A stretch of 40,000 nucleotides of DNA from NCBI RefSeq assembly GCF_001420915.1, contig NZ_CP013021.1, positions 2,428,361 through 2,468,360 on the forward strand. Reading direction: 5' to 3'. Both the position numbers and the translations under genes were made by a program. This DNA comes from Agarivorans gilvus (GTDB taxonomy: Bacteria > Pseudomonadota > Gammaproteobacteria > Enterobacterales > Celerinatantimonadaceae). Positions 15,437 to 26,520 of the stretch are shown here, piece by piece. Under the pieces are notes generated by a model. The model searched no databases. It saw nothing but the letters and a program-made list of their open reading frames with translations, and was not told where the DNA came from. Positions within the stretch are counted from its first letter, which is position 1; each line of letters begins with the position of its first letter.

Positions 15437-16063
15437 TCACCCTGCTACATCATAGAAAATCTCATCGGCTCGTCGGTCAAGCTCATTAGTGTGATTTGTT
15501 AGACCTCTCAACCTGTCATCCCAAGTTTCAATAGCCAACAAGATGATTTCTCGTGATGTTGCCTTGTCGATTACACTAGAAGGAGTTACAAACTGTTCAT
15601 TAACTGAATCAGTGTACAAAGATGCTTCTCTTAGCTCGACTAACCCACCAGCTTCCGCCATATCCAATAAGGCTCTAACTCGATCCTTACCAATAGCTTT
15701 AGGCAATCGAGAACCAATGGCGATAACTTCTTGAAGAGCAATGACGTGCTTTGCTCGATGATTGTAGAGCTTATCTTGTCGTTGCTTCTTTACCTCCTCT
15801 GGCTCTCCCATACTGCGAAACATTGCAACTTCAAGCTTGGCGATTTCCTCAATGGCAGATATCGCCAGAAAGACGGGCACATGGTAAATGCCTGACTTGT
15901 AGAGTTGATATGCACTTTCAAAGAGTGAAAGCACATGGTCACAGCCACTATTGAACTCTTCTATTACATTAGCTTTGTTGAAGATGTTTCGACCTTTGCC
16001 GATTGCCTCACCAACAACTATTGCCTTTCTAATTGCTATAGCTTTGTCTATGTCCACCAGCAC
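15437..16063 (-). CDS. AbiV-like abortive-infection protein (HEPN-like helical protein)
   Basis: 208-aa ORF with a GTG start. All-helical composition. Blocks AISAIEEIAKLEV and LYNHRAKH resemble my recollection of the AbiV family. Divergent from the RexAB-like pair. This is a recollection-level assignment only. Confidence 0.45.
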   Translation of the reverse strand: MLVDIDKAIAIRKAIVVGEAIGKGRNIFNKANVIEEFNSGCDHVLSLFESAYQLYKSGIYHVPVFLAISAIEEIAKLEVAMFRSMGEPEEVKKQRQDKLYNHRAKHVIALQEVIAIGSRLPKAIGKDRVRALLDMAEAGGLVELREASLYTDSVNEQFVTPSSVIDKATSREIILLAIETWDDRLRGLTNHTNELDRRADEIFYDVAG

Positions 16064-16204: not shown

Positions 16205-17236
16205 ATGAAGCTACGCTATTTCGGCTATCACTTGCGTAAGTTTGACACTCAAAAGACGTTTCTATTCAACATCAAGTCAATCGTTGACGCATTCATTAGC
16301 TCTAACAATATGGAGCTAAAGAGCAGCTTTAAGCGTGGTGATGACAAACTATATTTGACCCACATTGCGGGACAAAAGAACGTCTATTACTTCGTCCGTA
16401 CCAGTGACGATGATCTAATCAAACGTATCAACGAGCAAAACCTAACGGTCAGTGACATCACAGATAAGCTATCTGCTAATGAAAAGGTCGCTTATGTATC
16501 GTATGTGTATTTGAATGACACAGACAACATCATGGCATGTGCAAGTAGCACTAGCTGTCCTCGATTTGATGATTTTGCGGATTACATCAACGAGTTGTTT
16601 AACAAGGTCGGTCTTAAAAACTATGACTTCTTCATTGATGCTCTGACATCAAACAGTAACAAAGCCGATTTGATGAATATGGAAATGGTCAACAGTGTGT
16701 ATGTCGATGTTGCAGCAGATAAAAGCCTTGGGAAGTTGATAGCTAAAGAACTGACGGGCAACCCAAATGCTTCACTAGGAAACTTCCGTATTACGATTGA
16801 GCCAACAGGATCGAATCTAAAGCAAACATTTGTTAATATGCTGGCCCGCTTAGCACCTACAGGTAAAGCAAAAAACACTCAAGGTGTCATTCGAATCGGT
16901 GCTAAAGCGAAGCACAACGAGCTAAAAGGACAGTTGAATGACTATTGGTTGGATAATGAGAACAACCTAACAGACAACCTAAACCCTAAAGCTAAGACGA
17001 AGTTACCAGATCAGATCACGGCAAAGCACGATGAGAACTCGTATCTGGACAACCTGTATAAAGCATACGTTAAGAACAAGAACCTGAAATCTGAAGCGGA
17101 TACATTACTGGCGACGTATGCAGACAAGACACAGTTTGCAAAGAAAGCCAAAAATCAAGTAACTCAAGCTGATGCTGAACCAGCAAATGACGAACCGACA
17201 ACTTTAGTACCACTAAACTCTGAAGCGACTAGCTAA
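16205..17236 (+). CDS. RexA-like protein (sensor half of a RexAB-type abortive-infection pair) with a long Lys/Asn-rich C-terminal extension
   Basis: The N-terminal 210 aa align by eye with lambda RexA as I recall it. Ours: YYFVRTSDDDLIKRINEQNLTVSDITDKLSANEKVAYVSYVYL; lambda: FLFTKTNDKSLVQKINRSKASVEDIKNSLADDESLGFPSFLFV. Ours: DLMNMEMVNSVYVDVAAD; lambda: DVMHMHFIGRTTVKVEAK. Ours: FRITIEP; lambda: LDIVIKP. Tightly linked to the next gene (one base between its stop and the next ATG). Confidence 0.6.
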   Translation: MKLRYFGYHLRKFDTQKTFLFNIKSIVDAFISSNNMELKSSFKRGDDKLYLTHIAGQKNVYYFVRTSDDDLIKRINEQNLTVSDITDKLSANEKVAYVSYVYLNDTDNIMACASSTSCPRFDDFADYINELFNKVGLKNYDFFIDALTSNSNKADLMNMEMVNSVYVDVAADKSLGKLIAKELTGNPNASLGNFRITIEPTGSNLKQTFVNMLARLAPTGKAKNTQGVIRIGAKAKHNELKGQLNDYWLDNENNLTDNLNPKAKTKLPDQITAKHDENSYLDNLYKAYVKNKNLKSEADTLLATYADKTQFAKKAKNQVTQADAEPANDEPTTLVPLNSEATS

Positions 17237-17237
17237 A

Positions 17238-17702
17238 ATGACCAGAACTGAGATTGCAAAACTAAAGAAAGTTATATGGTTCACGCCTCTACTTGGTGTG
17301 ATCTTTGGCTTTGCATATCTTGGCCTCAAAGCTCATTTTGATTGGGCTTTTGGCTTCACTGAAGTCCGTACACTATCAACAATAGTTGCAGGGTTCAGCT
17401 TCACGATGCAGGGTTTCCTAGCTGCTATCGCTGCATTTCTCTTTTCATTGCAGAAGTACCGATTCTTCAAGAGATGGGTGGAAGATGGTAACTCTGAAGT
17501 TTTCTTTACTCTCTTTAAAGTTGCATTCGTTTGTCTGTTCATCACCTTTGGGTTCAGCTTATTCGTGTTCACATCTCAAGGGCAAGGCTTTGCATTCAAA
17601 GCAATGATGATGTCTGTAACCAACAACATCATCCAGCTTTGCATAATAACCATTATCATCATGGACAAGGTGTTTAAAGCTCGTGAGAGTGACGTCACCT
17701 AA
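17238..17702 (+). CDS. RexB-like small 4-TM membrane protein
   Basis: 154 aa with four clear hydrophobic helices. Same size and topology as lambda RexB (144 aa, 4 TM). Its ATG lies one base after the stop of the RexA-like gene. Confidence 0.55.
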   Translation: MTRTEIAKLKKVIWFTPLLGVIFGFAYLGLKAHFDWAFGFTEVRTLSTIVAGFSFTMQGFLAAIAAFLFSLQKYRFFKRWVEDGNSEVFFTLFKVAFVCLFITFGFSLFVFTSQGQGFAFKAMMMSVTNNIIQLCIITIIIMDKVFKARESDVT

Positions 17703-17840
17703 TTCAACTCTATAATTAGAGTCGTGGAAGTGGGGGCAAGTCTTGCCTCTTGCCATTCATTACTTTTTGTATATCAAACCTAGCAAAGTATCCGAAATAG
17801 TGATTCGAGCCTAGGCTCACTTTGGGGCAGTTTTGATTTC

Positions 17841-17954
17841 ATTACGCAACGTGCGTTTCATAAGTTGCGTAATAACAGTGAAAGACGCTTTGAGGCAGAG
17901 GTGATTTACGAAACAACTTGTTTCGCAATTGTGCAAGAGGCGGTTGCATAATTG
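17841..17954 (+). repeat. Hairpin-module element, copy A (three stem-loops)
   Basis: Three stem-loops: ATTACGCAAC-N13-GTTGCGTAAT (17841-17873), CGAAACAA-c-TTGTTTCG (17909-17925), and CAATTGTGCAA-gaggcgg-TTGCATAATTG (17926-17954). Bases 17903-17957 align at about 70 percent with 23253-23307, with compensatory stem changes. Confidence 0.6.
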
Positions 17955-18238
17955 AAGTTTGGCATGCCAGCTATCAGTCAGTCTTATGGCAAAGAAAACC
18001 CCAGTTATACATTTGTGAATAAATTCATGTCAGTCGAGTTTGAGCTGATACTCCGTTGGACACTGTTCATTATTACTGCGTCACTTACATAAAAGCGTCG
18101 GCGGCGCTACATGTACTCTTATTCGACATATGCATATTTCAGTTTTAACTAAAATTTGAAATGCGGCACGTTTTATAACTTATTGTTATTCTATTATTTT
18201 GGTATCCAAACCACACAAAACCGTAGTAGGAGATATCA

Positions 18239-18367
18239 ATGGGCATAAAACCTGGGCCAAAGAGAAAAAATGAAGACGGAACACCCGATAAACGACAGCG
18301 TGTCCGTCCAGAAACAAAGAAAAAACACCCAAAACTAAAAGAGCATAACCACGAGAAAGGTGATTAA
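18239..18367 (+). CDS. Possible 42-aa highly basic peptide
   Basis: ATG preceded by GTAGGAGAT (a good RBS). Encodes MGIKPGPKRKNEDGTPDKRQRVRPETKKKHPKLKEHNHEKGD. Followed by the stem-loop GATAAAGCAGC-N8-GCTGCTTTATC at 18375-18404. Below the track length cut-off, and no homologue recognised. Confidence 0.3.
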   Translation: MGIKPGPKRKNEDGTPDKRQRVRPETKKKHPKLKEHNHEKGD

Positions 18368-18749
18368 ACTCTATGATAAAGCAGCCTACTTAAGCTGCTT
18401 TATCAATAGCTCCCACAGCCTAAGCAAATAATATTTGACGACTGTACTACCTCAATATTCTGAATAAGCCAGCCAACTTGTTTTTCTAGCACACCTTCTT
18501 AAAAATGTTCAACCATATGATTATTATGAAAATATCACATGCGCCTTCAACAAAATCGAGCAAAAGATCAGAAAATGAGACTTGTTAGATTGTCTAAGTG
18601 CATGGATGCCCACGCATAAGGAAAAGTAGGAAAAATACCAGAGTTGTGAATTGAGGCGTAAGCCTGTTGAAACACGTTTTGGGGCACAAACGTGCTAGTA
18701 CGCCTTAAGCGACAAACACAGGACAAAATTTCGTCCCGTATCATTACCT

Positions 18750-20012
18750 TTATTTGCAGCTAATAAGTGGAATATGTCGCCAATCCGTCGTGTATTGAGG
18801 CGTGAGCATATCCCTTCGCATATGCCACTTGGGGCTGATACCTTGTGAGCCTAGAAACATTGTGCCACTGCCGTAGCGTTGATTTAATGCATCAACAGCT
18901 TTCATTAGTTCTGGTCGGCCCGGCTTTGCCGTAAACATATCCAGTTGTTGATACTGTTCATCAATTAAATCTATAAGGCCCACGCCGACTTTGTAGTATT
19001 TGATACCTGGAATAAATAGTTGGGGTATTGCTTGTGAGACCAGCTGACTAATCACAATGGTATCGTTAGTTGCACAAGCGGGCCGCAGCAACTGCTTAAA
19101 GCCTCGACTGATACCATCATCAAACGGCGAGTTATGTGCAAATATTAAAATCGCACCGACTACGCTACCTTGCTCTCTTGCTTTTAAACATGCACAGCTC
19201 ACATGCAGTGAAAATGCTTGCATCAACGAGTGTAGCTCCAGTATTCGTTGGCCAGTGCTTCTCGTTGAGAAAATTTGCTGCTTATTCGCTCGCGCTTCAT
19301 CCCATGATTTTGCGGATACACCGTTAAGTTCGAGTATCGTTCTCTCCATCTCCACGCTGAAATGCTGCTTAGCAAGCTTCGGTGGCATATTCGCCAACTT
19401 GTATCCGGTTGTTATTCCCATGTCTTTGAGACGTATGCTTAACTTTCGGCCCACTCCCCACACATCGGACACACACATTTGAGATAAAATACGGTCTCTT
19501 TGTTCATTATGCTCAATCACACAAACCCCATTGAAACCAGGTAAACGTTTAGCAGCATGATTGGCGACCTTACACAGCGTCAGCGTTTTTCCAAACCCCA
19601 CACAAACGGGTAAACGCACTTCTTTCCAAACAGTTCGACGGATTTGCTTTCCCAGAACCTCAAGCGGGGGCAGAGCCTCACAGGCATTTGATACATCTAT
19701 GAAGGTTTCATCAATACTGTATACATGTTGTCTTGGAGCAAATGCGCCAATGATTTGCATCATATGCATCGATAAATCTGCATATAGCTCATAGTTTGAC
19801 GAGCATACAATGACACCTTTTTTTTCGCACAATGATTTAATCTGGAAAAAAGGTTTAAAGCGCTCGATACCAATAGCTTTAGCCAAACGATTTACAGCAA
19901 CCACACAACCGTCGTTGTTGCTCAGTACTATGATTGGTTTGTTGCGCCAATCAGGGCGAAACACCGCTTCCGCTGAACAATAAAAACTATTGGCATCAAC
20001 AAGCGCAAACAT
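18750..20012 (-). CDS. umuC: Translesion DNA polymerase V catalytic subunit UmuC (Y-family)
   Basis: 420 aa. The N-terminus MFALVDANSFYCSAEAVFRPDWRNKPIIVLSNNDGCVVA is the canonical UmuC/Y-family start. Its start codon overlaps the umuD stop (ATGA). Confidence 0.9.
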   Translation of the reverse strand: MFALVDANSFYCSAEAVFRPDWRNKPIIVLSNNDGCVVAVNRLAKAIGIERFKPFFQIKSLCEKKGVIVCSSNYELYADLSMHMMQIIGAFAPRQHVYSIDETFIDVSNACEALPPLEVLGKQIRRTVWKEVRLPVCVGFGKTLTLCKVANHAAKRLPGFNGVCVIEHNEQRDRILSQMCVSDVWGVGRKLSIRLKDMGITTGYKLANMPPKLAKQHFSVEMERTILELNGVSAKSWDEARANKQQIFSTRSTGQRILELHSLMQAFSLHVSCACLKAREQGSVVGAILIFAHNSPFDDGISRGFKQLLRPACATNDTIVISQLVSQAIPQLFIPGIKYYKVGVGLIDLIDEQYQQLDMFTAKPGRPELMKAVDALNQRYGSGTMFLGSQGISPKWHMRRDMLTPQYTTDWRHIPLISCK

Positions 20013-20419
20013 TAAAGCAGTTTCAGCAAACGAGACGGCCGGTGACAGCGTATAGAGCGGATAACGACGCCTTCTACAGTAAACCTATCACAACTACTGA
20101 CAGCTACTGGGCCATAGTGTTCATTGGCTGATAGGAGCATACGTCTTGATTTATCGATAATCTTACACACAAACTCGCCGTTGATATTTGCGACAATGAC
20201 ATCACCACTCTCTACATGGACGTGACGGTCAACAATCAATACATCCCCATCGTGTATACCGCTACCCAACATTGAGTCTCCGGACGCTAGACCGATAAAT
20301 GTGGCTGATGGATGCTCAATAAGTAAGTCATCTAAACTCAGTGGGAGTTGCGAATATTCAGTCGCGGGGGATTCAAAACCTGTAAGGCCAGCACTCGCTA
20401 GAATAGGGATTACTTTCAT
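20012..20419 (-). CDS. umuD: UmuD, S24 LexA-like self-cleaving peptidase subunit of Pol V
   Basis: 135 aa. Has an Ala-Gly cleavage-type site near the N-terminus (ASAGLTGF), Ser nucleophile context SGDSM, and a downstream Lys (FVCKII). Sits directly upstream of umuC. Confidence 0.9.
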   Translation of the reverse strand: MKVIPILASAGLTGFESPATEYSQLPLSLDDLLIEHPSATFIGLASGDSMLGSGIHDGDVLIVDRHVHVESGDVIVANINGEFVCKIIDKSRRMLLSANEHYGPVAVSSCDRFTVEGVVIRSIRCHRPSRLLKLL

Positions 20420-21538: not shown

Positions 21539-21641
21539 GGGTTAACGCTTTGCTCAGCCGCCGCCGGAATGGAGCTGCTTTGTGCTAGCGTAGCGTACAG
21601 CACAAAGCGAGCGGAGTGTAGGCGCAACAATTTGTTATGCC
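21539..21641 (-). repeat. Roughly 100-nt imperfect palindrome, attC-like (candidate integron-cassette recombination site), or a bidirectional terminator
   Basis: On the - strand it starts GCATAAC (containing the TAA stop of the HNH-like ORF) and ends GTTAACC. These approximate R'' (RYYYAAC) and R' (GTTRRRY), with one mismatch each. Central stem GCTGCTTTGTGCT / AGCACAAAGC(g)AGC has a bulge. The complement GTTATGC recurs just upstream of the same ORF (22952-22959). No intI is present in the window. Confidence 0.3.
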
Positions 21642-22915
21642 TTTTCTGCTTCCACTAGTCGAATAGTTTCGTTGATTGACACTTCATTGATGCTATTTAA
21701 ACAGTCAAATCGCCAGCCACTTACTAAACTGTAGTGTTTAAAGGTATTCCAGAACTTTTGGTAATCTTCATCGTTTGAAAAGTCAACATTATCCTTTTTA
21801 CTAAAAGGAATTATGTATACATAAACAACGCTACCAAGCCTAAACTCTGAAACAACGTGCGGTATATCGGAGTCATCTATTTTGCGAACGTAGTTGGTAA
21901 TTTGAGGTACTTTAGAAAACCCACTATGAACAATATTTACAGCGACATTAGGTAAGCATAACTCTTTCTGATCATCGGTTTTCATCCACGTTATAGTTTG
22001 CTTAAGATCCGCTACATGCTCTTCATCAATTGTAGACAGTGTAATTTTACACAGCGCCTTGTAAAGTTTTGCTGGAGTGAACCTTTTTGTAGAATCCAAA
22101 TGAACTTTTATTTCCTTGTCGCTTACCGTCTCTATATTTTGGGATGCGACAATTGGCATATTGTTTACAACTTGCATGTGCCCATTTTTGTATTTTATTT
22201 TGGGAGTTCCGCTTTTCCCCTTTACACCAAGGAATACCCGATATATGTCTAAATGTTCGATCAGTGATGGTTCGATATTATTTCCAAAGAATTCATTGCA
22301 ATCGTCACATTCGTCACCAAGAATTATATTTTTGTTTCCAAGAGCCTCAGGGATCGCATGAGCCACCTTTCTGAAGGTGGCACCTTCATTCAAAGTTTTA
22401 TTGCAAAACCTACAGCAACGACTTTCTTTTTTTGCATTTCCTATAATTGTTCTTCTGTCATTCCTAGGGAGATTCAAGTTGTACTTTGATGTTAAATCCC
22501 CCGAAAATTCATCCAAAACACGCATTTTTGCTTCAAAATTTGACTGTAGTTCTTCTGTATTGCCAAACTCATTTAGAGTAGAAATGTATGTTTCTAGCTT
22601 TAACTTTTCCGACGTGTCAGTCGGTATAGACGGAAGCACTAAAAAATATTCATTGGTTGATAGATTTTCTATTTTGCTCTTCAGCCTGTTTAAAATCGGA
22701 TGAGAGCTTGCATACTTGACGACAAAGTCAGAGACTTTTTGCTTTAAATCTTCTGTCAATTTCTGCTCTGAAGAAACTTTTAAGGTGTTGTCTTTAATAT
22801 CGCCAAAGCATGCCAACAGCTCTAAATATACAGTACCAGTTTCTTCGTTAGCTGGCTGAAGGTTGATACCAAAGCCATCACCTTCTGTCATAAAGCAAAT
22901 ATTGTAACTTTCCAT
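21635..22915 (-). CDS. HNH-like (HNH_5-type) nuclease-domain protein with unknown N- and C-terminal regions
   Basis: 426 aa. The central block CRFCNKTLNEGATFRKVAHAIPEALGNKNIILGDECDDCNEFFGNNIE follows the CxxC...H...CxxCN pattern of HNH endonucleases. About 170 aa on the N side and 200 aa on the C side are not recognisable to me. Confidence 0.5.
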   Translation of the reverse strand: MESYNICFMTEGDGFGINLQPANEETGTVYLELLACFGDIKDNTLKVSSEQKLTEDLKQKVSDFVVKYASSHPILNRLKSKIENLSTNEYFLVLPSIPTDTSEKLKLETYISTLNEFGNTEELQSNFEAKMRVLDEFSGDLTSKYNLNLPRNDRRTIIGNAKKESRCCRFCNKTLNEGATFRKVAHAIPEALGNKNIILGDECDDCNEFFGNNIEPSLIEHLDIYRVFLGVKGKSGTPKIKYKNGHMQVVNNMPIVASQNIETVSDKEIKVHLDSTKRFTPAKLYKALCKITLSTIDEEHVADLKQTITWMKTDDQKELCLPNVAVNIVHSGFSKVPQITNYVRKIDDSDIPHVVSEFRLGSVVYVYIIPFSKKDNVDFSNDEDYQKFWNTFKHYSLVSGWRFDCLNSINEVSINETIRLVEAEKA

Positions 22916-23258
22916 ACTAGATTTCCGTAATCAATTTGCCACCGCACTGTAGGCATAACATCTTAGTATTGATGTCCTGTGCGGTTTGCTGGGAATCAAT
23001 CGATGTTGGACTTGGCAACTGCCACATCCGGATTATTTGGTATTAATCATGCTATAGGAATTTGCTTTTTTACGGTAGGGGGTTCTTTAACCGATTGAAG
23101 ACTAATTGCTTGAATTATTTTATGCTTTATCGCCCTACGACTTGCACTGTCCCAGTAATAGTGGACACGCTTAATCATTACTAAAATTTGGTCAACTGGA
23201 TTGCTTAAATTGGAAAGGCTCTGACATCCGTACCTCCGAATGGGGCATAAGTAATTTA

Positions 23259-23387
23259 TGAAACAAGCTGTTTCACATTTTTGCAAGAACCTCTTGCAAA
23301 ATTAGGGACGAGAATTTGTCCAACAGGCTGTTGGACATTTGTTGAATCAGACTACTTTCTAATTGTGCAACAGCTTGCTGCACAATT
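23259..23387 (+). repeat. Hairpin-module element, copy B (four consecutive stem-loops with 3-nt loops)
   Basis: Four stem-loops: TGAAACA-agc-TGTTTCA (23259-23275), TTTTGCAAGA-acc-TCTTGCAAAA (23279-23301), TGTCCAACA-ggc-TGTTGGACA (23317-23337), and AATTGTGCAaCAg-ctt-gcTGCACAATT (23361-23387). An alternative stem GGAC-N8-GTCC (23306-23321) overlaps the third. Confidence 0.6.
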
Positions 23388-23548
23388 GACGTAGATGGAA
23401 ATTGTACTGAAAAAGCGATAAAACCGTGGCCAGTTTTACTTGACCACTACATAGGTTATTACAGCCAAATCAGGCCTTACCAATTTTCGCACTCATGTAA
23501 GTATCAGAATCGCGTTTAGCTAATCATTAAATCTCGACCGAGTTCATA

Positions 23549-23854
23549 TTAGGCATAGTTAAAATGATGCTTCATAAAAAAATCCAGATAGCATCCTCTT
23601 TCTAACGTTCTTTCTTCGATCTGCTTCCACAACACGGGTAAATAGGTCTTAAGAACTTCAGCAGCCGATTGATAGTATTCATCCACACAGTCCCCATCAG
23701 CTGCTTTTAGCCAATCAGAAGGAGTTAAAAGGGTCAATCCTTGGTGGTAGTATTCAGGAATAGCTTTACGAATTGATTCTTCAGTGCCGCTGGCGACATA
23801 AATTGTAACGCCTTCACCCGTCGCGTAATAATGGCTAACTCCTACATAAAACAT
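23549..23854 (-). CDS. Hypothetical protein (about 101 aa)
   Basis: The track ORF is 23549-23896. I prefer the ATG at 23854 (MFYVGVSHYYATGEG...), which has AGGAG 6 nt upstream. No family recognised. Confidence 0.5.
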   Translation of the reverse strand: MFYVGVSHYYATGEGVTIYVASGTEESIRKAIPEYYHQGLTLLTPSDWLKAADGDCVDEYYQSAAEVLKTYLPVLWKQIEERTLERGCYLDFFMKHHFNYA

Positions 23855-24407
23855 ATTAACTCCTGACATCCTATTGCTTAATGAAAGTAACTTCACTGAT
23901 AATAAAAATTCTTAAACTCCAACACATTTCTGAAAACGCCCTAACTAGCATAATAAGTCATTAACCATAATGTAAGGTTCGTTCTGAAACATTTTTGAGG
24001 CATAAGCATTGCCAGCAATGTCTGGATGTTCAGGTAGATTTGAACTCGACAGGTTACAAGCATATACTGCTGATGCTTGCTATGAGAAACGTGGCTTCGG
24101 CTCCACTCGTAGACAGATTAATCCAAATAACCCTGTTCTCTTCCGCTCATAGAGTATTGACCACAGGTAGCAGAACAAGAGCCACTAACAGTGGCTCTTG
24201 TCGTATCTAAGTGTTAGAAAAGTTGAGGTATCCCCCTTCAACATTGCCACTTTCATATGTGGGGCGTAACACATTTGGGGGCAGAATTTTCTTAGACTAA
24301 TCACTTAAGTTAGGAAAGTACGGATTGTCTATAAACAGGTGTCGGGAAGCACCTTTTGTTAAATGCGTCCTCTGAGAAATTCAATTGAGGCCAAGCTTAC
24401 TTTATTA

Positions 24408-24766: not shown

Positions 24767-25081
24767 TTAAGCCAACGGTGACTTGTTATGTCTTTGAACA
24801 ATATGATTGATGTTTTTAATACCTAGCTCCATCTTTTGACGCGCCGATGAGTTTGCAGAGTGCACTTTCATTTTGGGTGGGACAAATTGATTAAGCAATG
24901 CCTGCTCTTCTATCCAAAGCACAACATCATATCCAGTGCCGTGGTCATCATTTCCGAGATCATGGTCTAAGCTAATTTCTGTTACTTCACCTGTTTTCAG
25001 CAATTCTATGGCTTCCTCCGGCCAATATACTCTTACCCACCCTTCAGGTGTCTCTCGTTCATCATCTAGGTAAACTTTCAT
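24767..25081 (-). CDS. Receiver-like small protein resembling the cyclic-phosphate-processing receiver (cREC) family
   Basis: 104 aa. MKVYLDDERETPEGWVRVYWPEEAIELL...ISLDHDLG matches my recollection of the MK.fLDDeR.P.GW...SLDHDLG pattern of these phage/island-borne receiver-fold proteins. RBS GGAG upstream. Confidence 0.5.
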   Translation of the reverse strand: MKVYLDDERETPEGWVRVYWPEEAIELLKTGEVTEISLDHDLGNDDHGTGYDVVLWIEEQALLNQFVPPKMKVHSANSSARQKMELGIKNINHIVQRHNKSPLA

Positions 25082-25266
25082 GTCTTTACTCCATGTTCAC
25101 ACCCGACAGAGCATGTCGTAGCATGGTGAATTTTAATAGCCTGATATACTTTTACCAATCCACAAAAATCAGGAAAAATTAAAAGTTATGCAACGTACGA
25201 CGCCTCCCCAACACAAATTAAAACATGACTACCTTTAAAATATACCTCGCTAGTATGATATCGAAT

Positions 25267-25346
25267 GCGTTACGCAACTTGCGTAACGCAACTTGCGTAA
25301 CGCAACTTGCGTAACGCAACTTGCGTAACGCAGCTTGCGCAATTGC
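25267..25346. repeat. Tandem repeat, 14-bp unit GCGTAACGCAACTT, about 5.7 copies; fully self-complementary array
   Basis: Copies start at 25267 (variant GCGTTACGCAACTT), then 25281, 25295 and 25309 (identical), then 25323 (GCGTAACGCAGCTT), with a partial GCGCAATTGC at 25337. The array alternates ACGCAA and TTGCGT half-sites with 1-nt spacers. It can therefore pair in many registers (for example TTACGCAA-c-TTGCGTAA). Confidence 0.9.
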
Positions 25347-25497
25347 TATTTCCTTTAATTTTCAATTTCTTAAAGTAAAGTTTGCGCACATCACAAGCTG
25401 AATTGTGCTGCTGTATATAACAGCTAAATCACGAAAACGTCGCCGTCAACGAAGTAGAGAAAACCAACCTTTACATCGTTACTCATTACGTCTGTGG

Positions 25498-26520
25498 CTA
25501 GAAAATATTTAGGCCAAATATGTCTTTGATATCAAAGAGCACTTTATCTGTCTTTTCTCGTGAAACTTGACTTCCTGCCTTCAAAATGTCGATTAGTTGT
25601 GCCTTATCATTTAAGTACACGGCTCTTTTTTGTCGAATAGGCCGGAGCATTTCTTGTAAGCATTCTTCTAGGATTCTCTTCGTCACGCCGTCACCTAGTC
25701 CTCCTCGTTGATAGTGTTGCTTTAATTGTTGGACATAGCTTTCATCAGAATGAAAAGCATCTAAATAAGTAAACACCACATTCCCTTCTATCTTGCCGGG
25801 GTCTTCAATTCTTACATGGTGAGGGTCGGTATACATAGACTTGACCGCTGCGGTGATTTCCTTTTCACTCGCTCCTAGATTAATAGTGTTCCCCATCGAT
25901 TTAGACATCTTATTTTTTCCATCGGTGCTGGGTAAGCGTGGCGCTTTGCTTAACAATGGCTGACATTCATTGAGAACATTGCGCCCGGCTAATGCGTTTA
26001 TCTTCCGCACGATTTCATTGGTTTGTTCAAGCATTGGTAATTGGTCGTCACCAACGGGGACTAATGTTGCGTTAAACCCAGTGATATCCGCGGCCTGAGA
26101 GATGGGATACGTTAAGAAACCTGCGGGGATGGAGCGCTCAAATCCTTTATTCTGAATTTCACTTTTAACTGTAGGATTACGCTCTAATCGACTAATAGTA
26201 ACTAGGTTACTGTAATACATAGTGAGTTCGGCAAGCGCTGGTAATTGTGACTGAAGGCATATAGTCGTTGCTGATGGGTCTATCCCTACAGCGAGGTAAT
26301 CCGCCACCACATTTAGAATATTCGATGACACTTTTTGAGGGTGAAGGGCATTGTCTGTCAGGCCTTGCATATCAGCAACAAGAATGGTTTGTTCATGGTG
26401 AGCTTGTAAAGCGACACGCTGCTTTAAAGAACCAACGTAATGGCCTAGGTGTAATGGGCCAGTCGCTCTATCACCGGTTAAAATAACCTCTGATTTATCC
26501 GTTTTATGTTGTGTATTCAT
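25498..26520 (-). CDS. trpS: Tryptophan--tRNA ligase, TrpRS-II type paralogue (auxiliary trpS)
   Basis: 340 aa. HIGH-type motif GPLHLGHYVG and KMSKS motif present. Overall it resembles the Deinococcus TrpRS-II type (TGDR.TG.LHLGH, LVADMQGLTD, VPVGDDQLPMLEQT) rather than the housekeeping gammaproteobacterial TrpS. RBS GAGGAG upstream. Confidence 0.9.
   Translation of the reverse strand: MNTQHKTDKSEVILTGDRATGPLHLGHYVGSLKQRVALQAHHEQTILVADMQGLTDNALHPQKVSSNILNVVADYLAVGIDPSATTICLQSQLPALAELTMYYSNLVTISRLERNPTVKSEIQNKGFERSIPAGFLTYPISQAADITGFNATLVPVGDDQLPMLEQTNEIVRKINALAGRNVLNECQPLLSKAPRLPSTDGKNKMSKSMGNTINLGASEKEITAAVKSMYTDPHHVRIEDPGKIEGNVVFTYLDAFHSDESYVQQLKQHYQRGGLGDGVTKRILEECLQEMLRPIRQKRAVYLNDKAQLIDILKAGSQVSREKTDKVLFDIKDIFGLNIF

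Follow-up and report, generated by a model that had tools for sequence, protein, structure and literature searches.

Short palindromic sequences that recur between or within bacterial genes have been described in several forms, and these are the nearest comparisons for the elements reported here, two intergenic arrays of near-perfect palindromes, A (17821-17951) and B (23241-23387), in a 40,000-nucleotide stretch of the Agarivorans gilvus genome (contig NZ_CP013021.1, positions 2,428,361 to 2,468,360 of the forward strand; hereafter the window, in whose numbering all coordinates are given). Their units belong to a family of palindromes that also lies within the coding sequence of DUF1016/YhcG genes. 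Repetitive extragenic palindromes (REP) and bacterial interspersed mosaic elements (BIME) of Gammaproteobacteria, which run to hundreds of copies per genome and have a cognate transposase, resemble the arrays in being clustered, short, imperfect and extragenic, in having a short conserved flanking motif, and in being insertion targets of the IS110 family of insertion sequences (IS), an end of which lies after the flanking motif, or head, of one relative of our arrays. In contrast to REP/BIME, the units described here are near-perfect up to a centre of 1-3 nt and share sequence with a DUF1016 coding segment, and no REP-associated tyrosine transposase (RAYT, TnpA-REP) was seen; HUH transposases (IS91, IS200/IS605) were likewise absent from the window open reading frames (ORFs) scanned with Pfam.

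Rickettsia palindromic elements (RPEs) are mobile insertions of ~100-150 bp, found in frame inside many unrelated protein-coding genes of one genus. Our family shares with them the presence of palindromic DNA both within ORFs and in non-coding DNA, but it consists of 23-31 bp palindromes at one fixed position of one gene family, in many phyla, and its arms covary. The pdif modules of Acinetobacter plasmids are XerC/D sites flanking mobile gene modules, and thus likewise short dyad sites that delimit interchangeable blocks of genes in plasmids and islands; the sequences reported here, however, are not dif-like (no 11-6-11 architecture) and nothing points to Xer. Integron attC sites, to whose logic the preliminary description of this locus had likened the modules, keep structure over sequence, lie at cassette boundaries, and serve IS1111/IS110-type elements and group IIC introns as targets. 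The likeness did not go further: the units are much shorter, lack the R''/L''-L'/R' cores (R'', RYYYAAC; R', GTTRRRY), extrahelical bases and strand asymmetry, and lie among genes on both strands, and no integron integrase (IntI) was found among the 20 large ORFs of the island and its left flank that were scanned with Pfam.

The last comparison concerns a mutational process rather than a class of element. In template-switch mutagenesis at quasipalindromes (the Ripley model, which Lovett and colleagues reportedly studied in E. coli), the sequence of one arm is copied onto the other; this would yield concerted 'compensatory' changes and palindromes perfect to the centre in the absence of selection on a folded RNA, but leaves unexplained the fixed position in DUF1016 genes across phyla. 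Compensatory changes in short perfect palindromes may stem from DNA processes and need not signal RNA.

Anatomy of arrays A and B

Bases 17903-17957 and 23253-23307 aligned without gaps with 40 identities in 55 positions; the preliminary description, which was based on this pair, had the alignment right and the count one short (39/55). When the intergenic regions were searched against the window by self-BLAST at low stringency, the pair was by far the top off-diagonal match (17891-17953 with 23241-23303, 76% over 63 nt, E = 3e-9). The two arrays are homologous and are members of one palindrome family, and each of the copies first noticed is part of a larger series of near-perfect palindromes with centres of 1-3 nt, which opens in both arrays with a head of the TTTGGGGCA type.

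In array A the head (17821-17829, + strand) is followed by palindrome A1, ATTACGCAAC-N13-GTTGCGTAAT (17841-17873), previously noticed as an upstream module, which is of an ACGCAA type and has 10-nt arms that are 100% complementary. After a second head, TTTGAGGCA (17889-17897, + strand), come palindrome A2, TTACGAAACAA-C-TTGTTTCGCAA (17906-17928; arms 17906-17916/17918-17928, 11 nt, 91% complementary), and palindrome A3, TTGTGCAAGAGGCGGTTGCATAA (17929-17951), in which pair counts gave one G.T pair and two broken inner pairs. The head of array B (23241-23249, + strand) lies inside GAATGGGGCATAAGT and is followed by palindrome B1, TGAAACA-AGC-TGTTTCA (23257-23277; arms 23259-23265/23269-23275), the homologue of A2, and by B2, TTTTGCAAGA-ACC-TCTTGCAAAA (23277-23303; arms 23279-23288/23292-23301, 10 nt, 100% complementary), the homologue of A3. 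Array B then extends, beyond the part first described, with two further palindromes (23317-23337 and 23361-23387), B3, TGTCCAACAG-G-CTGTTGGACA (23316-23338 in full), and B4, AATTGTGCAACA-GCT-TGCTGCACAATT (23361-23387). All the stems reported earlier could be located, with arms 91-100% complementary where scored.

Perfect palindromes with arms of at least 8 nt and a loop of at most 3 nt numbered 11 distinct cases in the window (13 rows), against ~3 in shuffled sequences (maximum 7), an excess of ~4x, and 5 of the 11 were clustered in the few intergenic patches occupied by the arrays. As single-stranded DNA, both strands of the arrays folded far better than shuffles (z -3.5 to -7.1).

Palindromes inside DUF1016/YhcG genes

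A genome scan with a degenerate pattern for the first palindrome, AWTTRYGAAACAANNTGYTTCRCAW, returned matches in at least 120 genomes from many phyla, the matches listed including Verrucomicrobiota, Bacteroidota, Firmicutes, Proteobacteria, Cyanobacteria, Omnitrophota and Planctomycetota. Among the matches listed, both halves of a DUF1016 protein flanked the palindrome at 82 of 120 loci, the N part only at 12, the C part only at 2 and neither at 24, the three Vibrio loci being among these last. The host genes encode proteins with the Pfam domains DUF1016_N and YhcG_C and are assigned by PADLOC to PDC-S02, a candidate single-gene anti-phage system; within them the palindrome encodes I-A-K-Q-x-V-S-Q, followed by (L/I)PWGH. 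A2 is the unit that encodes (I/F)(A/T)KQxVSQ in these genes, B4 reads IVQQAVAQL on its minus strand, and B3 is near-identical to the coding palindrome AATTGTCCAACAAGCTGTTGGACAATT of Vibrio DUF1016 genes, which read AATTGTCCAACAAGCTGTTGGACAATT-ACCTTGGGGGCATAAT, nearly B3 with a sequence close to the head (GAATGGGGCATAAGT) after it.

At one position of the pattern the two arms covaried, with C-G in 104 cases, T-A in 29, C-A in 8 and T-G in 6 among the matches listed, so that when one arm switches between Ala and Val, a Ser codon in the other changes synonymously to match. For a sample not biased by the palindrome, DUF1016 genes were taken from viral contigs by their C-terminal motifs only (KDPYxFDF, FLLELGxGF). 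Most of these genes held a perfect palindrome with arms of 8-15 bp in the 41 codons before PWGH/SWSH, of differing sequence and with readings such as IVQQAVAQ, IGQQAVDQ, AIVQQAVGQL, ILQQVVAKL, ICQTLSGKL and KGETLSHLL. Synonymous shuffles that keep the protein and the gene's own codon pool (200 per gene) gave a median arm of 4.9, against 8.5 observed (36 genes), and in 20 of the 36 genes the observed arm was reached by 0/200 shuffles. In an alignment of the coding palindromes by their centres, both partners had changed in 12 of 13 pairs, and the covariation score was 0.79, compared with 0.21 in shuffles (0/500 reached the observed value), although the synonymous-codon test is the fairer control, since the centre alignment was built on each gene's best palindrome. 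The earlier suggestion that structure is kept while sequence changes thus holds for the wider family, and the palindrome in DUF1016 genes is kept by a constraint at the level of nucleic acid rather than of protein.

Geometry accounts for how this can be: in a palindrome centred on the first base of a codon, first bases pair with first bases and second with third, so that all synonymous sites are used and the residues of both arms are tied to each other through complementarity. Genes with several different palindromes in a row also exist. In favour of a role at junctions, DUF1016 genes are themselves rearranged exactly at the palindrome: in two loci (L035, L046) a 45-bp unit containing it is repeated in tandem up to 7 times, internal deletions join it directly to the C-terminal tail (L013, L117), one gene is truncated by a stop directly after it (L071), and many PADLOC models of DUF1016 fragments begin or end near its residues.

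The most interesting reading of this maintenance is that selection may keep the palindrome as a site acting in cis for the nuclease or a partner recombinase. In one Vibrio plasmid DUF1016 adjoins a tyrosine recombinase gene, and in others such a gene is near the array. In its fuller form, the palindrome would be a cis-acting DNA site of the DUF1016/PDC-S02 nuclease (for recognition, regulation or recombination), written as a dual code in the reading frame, and the free arrays would be working sites, either decoys or cassette-exchange sites driving defence-island turnover; to this we give limited credence. If the link between the palindromes and the gene family holds, a widespread candidate anti-phage nuclease family would bear a second, nucleic-acid-level code in its reading frame, the amino acids of both arms would be tied by base complementarity, and a testable cis element would offer a handle on the role of DUF1016/PDC-S02.

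By sequence, no solved DUF1016 relative was found in the PDB. In the literature searched on DUF1016, YhcG and COG4804 no description of the palindrome was found, an absence of evidence only, as coverage was incomplete. Upstream of the DUF1016 gene of a Vibrio chagasii plasmid (L211 3233-5047), a 252-aa 'site-specific integrase' gene ends 10 bp before it; the upstream gene is a different one in Vibrio nigripulchritudo (L212).

Orphan arrays: kinship, chemistry and context

A covariance model, R1, was built solely from 24 coding palindromes of DUF1016 genes and run against the window. Its five best matches were B4 (2.5e-7), B2 (5e-6), B3 (3e-5), A3 (6e-3; 17923-17957) and A2 (0.015; 17900-17934), and the tandem array at 25266-25339 scored weakly (E = 0.34); true Vibrio DUF1016 genes scored 5.5e-10. 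The window units thus belong to the coding-palindrome family, whose unit is a dyad of 23-31 bp with AATT-like ends, an ACA-N(1-3)-TGT core and variable but complementary arm middles. They do not lie in frame before PWGH codons inside a DUF1016_N + YhcG_C gene: no ORF covers array A or B, adjacent units are motif-like in alternating frames with centre-to-centre distances of 23, 37 and 47 nt, and they overlap through their common AATT ends. Since tblastn also found no remnant of the DUF1016 N- or C-domain around any orphan array, the units are best taken as orphan derivatives of the palindrome segment and not as parts of a gene. A decayed whole DUF1016 gene around the arrays was ruled out by the same tblastn comparison. 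The statement in the preliminary description that the modules are not a protein-coding remnant is not borne out as regards their origin, given that the same palindromes lie in DUF1016/YhcG coding sequence and that R1 finds the window units; as they stand, the arrays are non-coding and lie in a mosaic context. The head probably has the same source, to judge from the resemblance of TTTGGGGCAT to the PWGHN codons of Vibrio DUF1016 genes, written CCTTGGGGGCATAAT where the head of array B was compared with them.

Further copies, whose existence had been left to be checked, do exist: the ordered series of units recurs in at least six other Vibrio-type loci. The relatives are in Vibrio mediterranei (L079 and L082, two array copies on one contig), in Vibrio sp. 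nBUS_14 (L087), on two metagenome contigs (L209, L210), and on plasmids, namely MOBH Vibrio plasmids (L004, L006) and, in part, a V. pectenicida plasmid (L005). R1 recovered the arrays of L004, L079, L082, L087, L209 and L210. A pattern specific for the orphan junctions was found in just 2 metagenome contigs and 0 viral contigs. That the two window copies are a chance similarity, or diverged copies of a promoter with no structural meaning, is highly improbable: just 55-63 nt are shared and only two compensated pairs separate the copies, as such a reading would have it, but it is already contradicted by the self-BLAST, by the identical unit order in the relatives and by the R1 matches, and no promoter-like site was found in array B or inside array A.

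Covariation among the orphan copies themselves is slight. In an alignment of eight orphan sequences 88.9% of the cells paired, against 34-43% with the partners slid. Two pairs were changed on both sides, one (columns 36-52) being C-G in six copies and T-A in window copy B, the other (columns 58-76) G.T in four copies and T-A in four. These are the paired changes on which the preliminary description had rested its case for conserved structure; both are real, but alone they do not carry it, as the pairs are few and 263 of 500 shuffles reach the same count. The two compensated A/B pairs are also weak evidence because ~four other differences between A and B break a pair.

The arrays were compared with what would be expected of an RNA, the preliminary description having proposed a functional RNA or a single-strand DNA site. 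Mismatches in the coding palindromes showed no strand bias (6 of G.T type and 8 of A.C type on the sense strand; likewise 6 and 8 at the pattern position, among the matches listed). In 17 of 27 coding palindromes complementarity ran right to a 1-nt centre, which argues against a hairpin, whose loop cannot use such pairing. Unit 1 of every orphan copy keeps an A.C mismatch on the + strand, and both strands of the arrays fold equally well. Together these features point to a duplex or cruciform dyad, or to an arm-copying process, and not to a strand-specific RNA.

It is accordingly improbable that the arrays act as RNA, be it as REP-like hairpins that, in 3' untranslated regions, terminate or stabilise transcripts, or as a small RNA. 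Such a role would fit the position of array A, array B and the 25266 array, each 110-160 nt downstream of a gene 3' end (rexB, ORF 23549-23896 and trpS, respectively), the strong predicted folding, and the terminator-like score of B3 (23317-23337), the only unit to pass a loose terminator scan. Besides the features just given, it is opposed by the absence of U-tracts except after B3, of a promoter-like site beside array B, and of any intrinsic terminator (G+C-rich stem plus T/U run) in 17600-18800; the stems are A+T-rich. Rfam gave no match in the whole window at gathering thresholds, and none at the modules even at E <= 1, in agreement with the earlier remark that they fit no nameable class; in the related loci Rfam found group II introns only.

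A second alternative, which we also consider quite unlikely, takes the palindromes as operators or centromere-like arrays bound as duplex by a dimeric protein, perhaps DUF1016 itself in autoregulation, with the orphan arrays as extra sites or decoys. Dyad symmetry perfect to the centre, an outer AATT and an inner ACA..TGT that are conserved while the middles vary, units at a spacing of about two helical turns (23 nt) and the 14-bp tandem array nearby would all suit bound dimers. The arm middles, however, vary and yet stay complementary, which a sequence-reading dimer would need only if each lineage co-evolved with its own site; moreover, there is no consistently adjacent regulator gene, and the AATT ends can be accounted for by coding conservation of the I..Q..Q L residues.

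The copies sit where similarity to other replicons begins or ends, as would be expected of sites marking boundaries of gene blocks: the similarity is limited to the array and the flanks are unrelated. The head and A1 of array A are 87% identical to the V. pectenicida plasmid (L005 5001-5085), in a match to 17819-17903 that ends right past the second head, a few bases later, where the plasmid runs into the umuD promoter; the umuDC genes of the window are inverted relative to that plasmid and 2.5 kb away. B2 and B3 are 81% identical to the Vibrio MOBH plasmids. Mobile elements lie beside several relatives: an IS110-family end is inserted directly after the head in L082, with a similar target (TTGGnnCAAAA) in L079; in L087, ~50 nt separate a group II intron from a copy made up of palindrome and head; and in L079 the array has next to it a Tn7-like end, which also bounds the 4.1-kb array-bearing unit of the plasmids. 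The MOBH plasmids carry an IS91 transposase and a tyrosine recombinase gene 380 bp from the array, both within that larger unit with its Tn7-like ends.

As an observation on these plasmids, the unit is 4126 bp long (L004 1585-5710), comprises arr, the IS91 transposase, the tyrosine recombinase and the palindrome array, has as its borders inverted Tn7-like ends that bear three TnsB-type repeats, and is identical in two plasmid backbones; its end recurs beside the V. mediterranei array (L079 4621-4742). The Tn7-like end, the extended head and the GTTG-region motifs of the Vibrio relatives are absent from the window.

The reading towards which we lean, with somewhat better than even confidence, is that the modules are orphan, non-coding arrays of DUF1016 palindromes, DNA-level dyads that mark rearrangement junctions in a defence island, and not a gene, a small RNA or an operator. 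The palindrome would have its native place in DUF1016/YhcG (PADLOC PDC-S02) nuclease genes, where one to five units encode xxQQxVxQ repeats just ahead of the PWGH motif. The Vibrio arrays, a head and then palindromes, would derive from that gene segment, having lost coding capacity and now lying between gene blocks. They would act, if at all, as double-stranded or cruciform- or hairpin-capable DNA dyads. Fork hairpins, template switching and breakage occur at short perfect palindromes: the switching, in copying one arm onto the other, would produce the 'compensatory' changes, and breakage and recombination could join unrelated DNA, while site-specific mobile elements may target the adjacent head or hairpin. 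Fragile, recombinogenic dyads that are also mobile-element targets would explain why the arrays stand at meeting points of unrelated defence-island and plasmid blocks. We infer both the DNA-level action and the hot-spot role from the sequences; the arrays of the window are in themselves probably relics or hot spots, and the link to the gene family is the interesting part. If that link holds, R1 together with the head motif would make a sequence marker for the cargo-exchange junctions of defence islands and plasmids in Vibrio and relatives.

Several points weigh against this reading, besides the slight covariation of the orphan copies. Only ~8 orphan arrays were found, and the order of their units is conserved across several Vibrio species and plasmids, so that a function of their own is possible. 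Some copies are partly decayed (in A3 the inner pairs, in L209 the third unit), and relics fit this decay as well as active sites do. A long palindrome is lacking in roughly a third of DUF1016 genes, those of the E. coli YhcG type among them; the use of each gene's best palindrome in the centre alignment inflated the percentage paired; and the head matches the PWGHN codons in ~15/19 nt, which chance could produce.

The junction positions also bear on a further possibility, rather unlikely in our judgement, that heads and palindromes are att-like sites of a site-specific recombinase, the island having been built by cassette accretion or exchange between directly repeated heads and the DUF1016 palindrome being the same site. 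All six heads of the island are intergenic and on the + strand, similarity between replicons stops at heads, and direct copies of the head delimit a 380-bp unit common to L079, L082 and L209. A recombinase is at hand in the V. chagasii plasmid, whose 'site-specific integrase' gene precedes DUF1016 by 10 bp, and in the MOBH plasmids with their tyrosine recombinase gene 380 bp from the array. The island of the window, on the other hand, holds no recombinase gene, its genes between heads run in both orientations, and the gene upstream of the V. nigripulchritudo DUF1016 is annotated as hypothetical only. Known tyrosine-recombinase core sites have a 6-8 bp asymmetric spacer, and our units have centres of 1-3 nt. 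In support of a recombinase, DUF1016 genes are enriched beside recombinase-driven invertible loci (PMC9881135).

Heads, neighbouring genes and the surrounding island

Head motifs of the TTTGGGGCA kind occur six times in the intergenic DNA of the island, always on the + strand (17821, 17889, 18678, 23241, 23994 and 24275). The third (TTTTGGGGCA at 18678) lies in the loop of a 7-bp inverted repeat (18673-18694, + strand), 56 nt from the umuC stop, and motif scans placed a further TTTGAGGCA in the next intergenic region after that of array B (23994-24002, + strand) and TTGGGGGCA at 24275-24283 (+ strand). Plasmid loci of Shewanella and Vibrio (L001, L002, L209, L210) contain an extended form of the head (..AAC..TTTGGGGCATAAATGAGCTAG). 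A sigma-54 promoter was considered for the head and rejected, the spacing being GG-N9-GC instead of GG-N10-GC and the fit unconvincing by eye.

The arrays are part of an island of ~10 kb between a major facilitator superfamily (MFS) transporter gene and trpS, on a Vibrio-like chromosome with sugar and agarase genes. Its order is AbiV (15437-16063) and RexA with RexB (16205-17702), all identified by PADLOC, array A, a 42-aa ORF, umuC and umuD (18750-20419, minus strand), an Endonuclease_NS protein, an HNH_5 protein (21635-22915, minus strand) and array B, followed by a solo IS3-family end, small ORFs, a cREC_REC protein and the 14-bp tandem array. The solo terminal repeat (23404-23455, + strand) stands directly against array B with no transposase gene; its plasmid matches number in the thousands and fall at ends that carry an IS3-family transposase annotation. 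The cREC_REC protein adjoins trpS at the far edge of the island (24767-26520), a defence-island setting within a sugar-utilisation region. An IS200/IS605 (TnpA/TnpB) identity was ruled out for the 135-aa and 420-aa ORFs, which are UmuD and UmuC. No tRNA or tmRNA was found in the window, the phage collection gave no match to it, and exact-protein look-ups of the HNH protein, tryptophanyl-tRNA synthetase (TrpRS) and the MFS transporter returned a single genome, GCA_014636215.1 (contig BMDY01000015.1).

The tandem array consists of 5.3 copies of TGCGTAACGCAACT with a 14-bp period (25266-25339) and resembles A1, each unit forming overlapping palindromes of the ACGCAA type (GTTACGCAAC / TTGCGTAAC); palindromes of this type, to which A1 belongs, also follow a head in L209 and L087. 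Two other segments of the island have close counterparts elsewhere. The 176 bp directly upstream of the HNH_5 gene (22955-23130) are 93.8% identical to Shewanella xiamenensis plasmids, in which the counterpart precedes a different, zinc-ribbon gene, and look like a common 5' region ahead of exchangeable cargo genes. The segment 18121-18403, which comprises the 42-aa ORF (18240-18368) and a palindrome (18374-18405) whose arms measure 15 bp, matches a conjugative plasmid of Vibrio sp. J383 at 92% identity; its counterpart there lies ~600 nt upstream of a group II intron.

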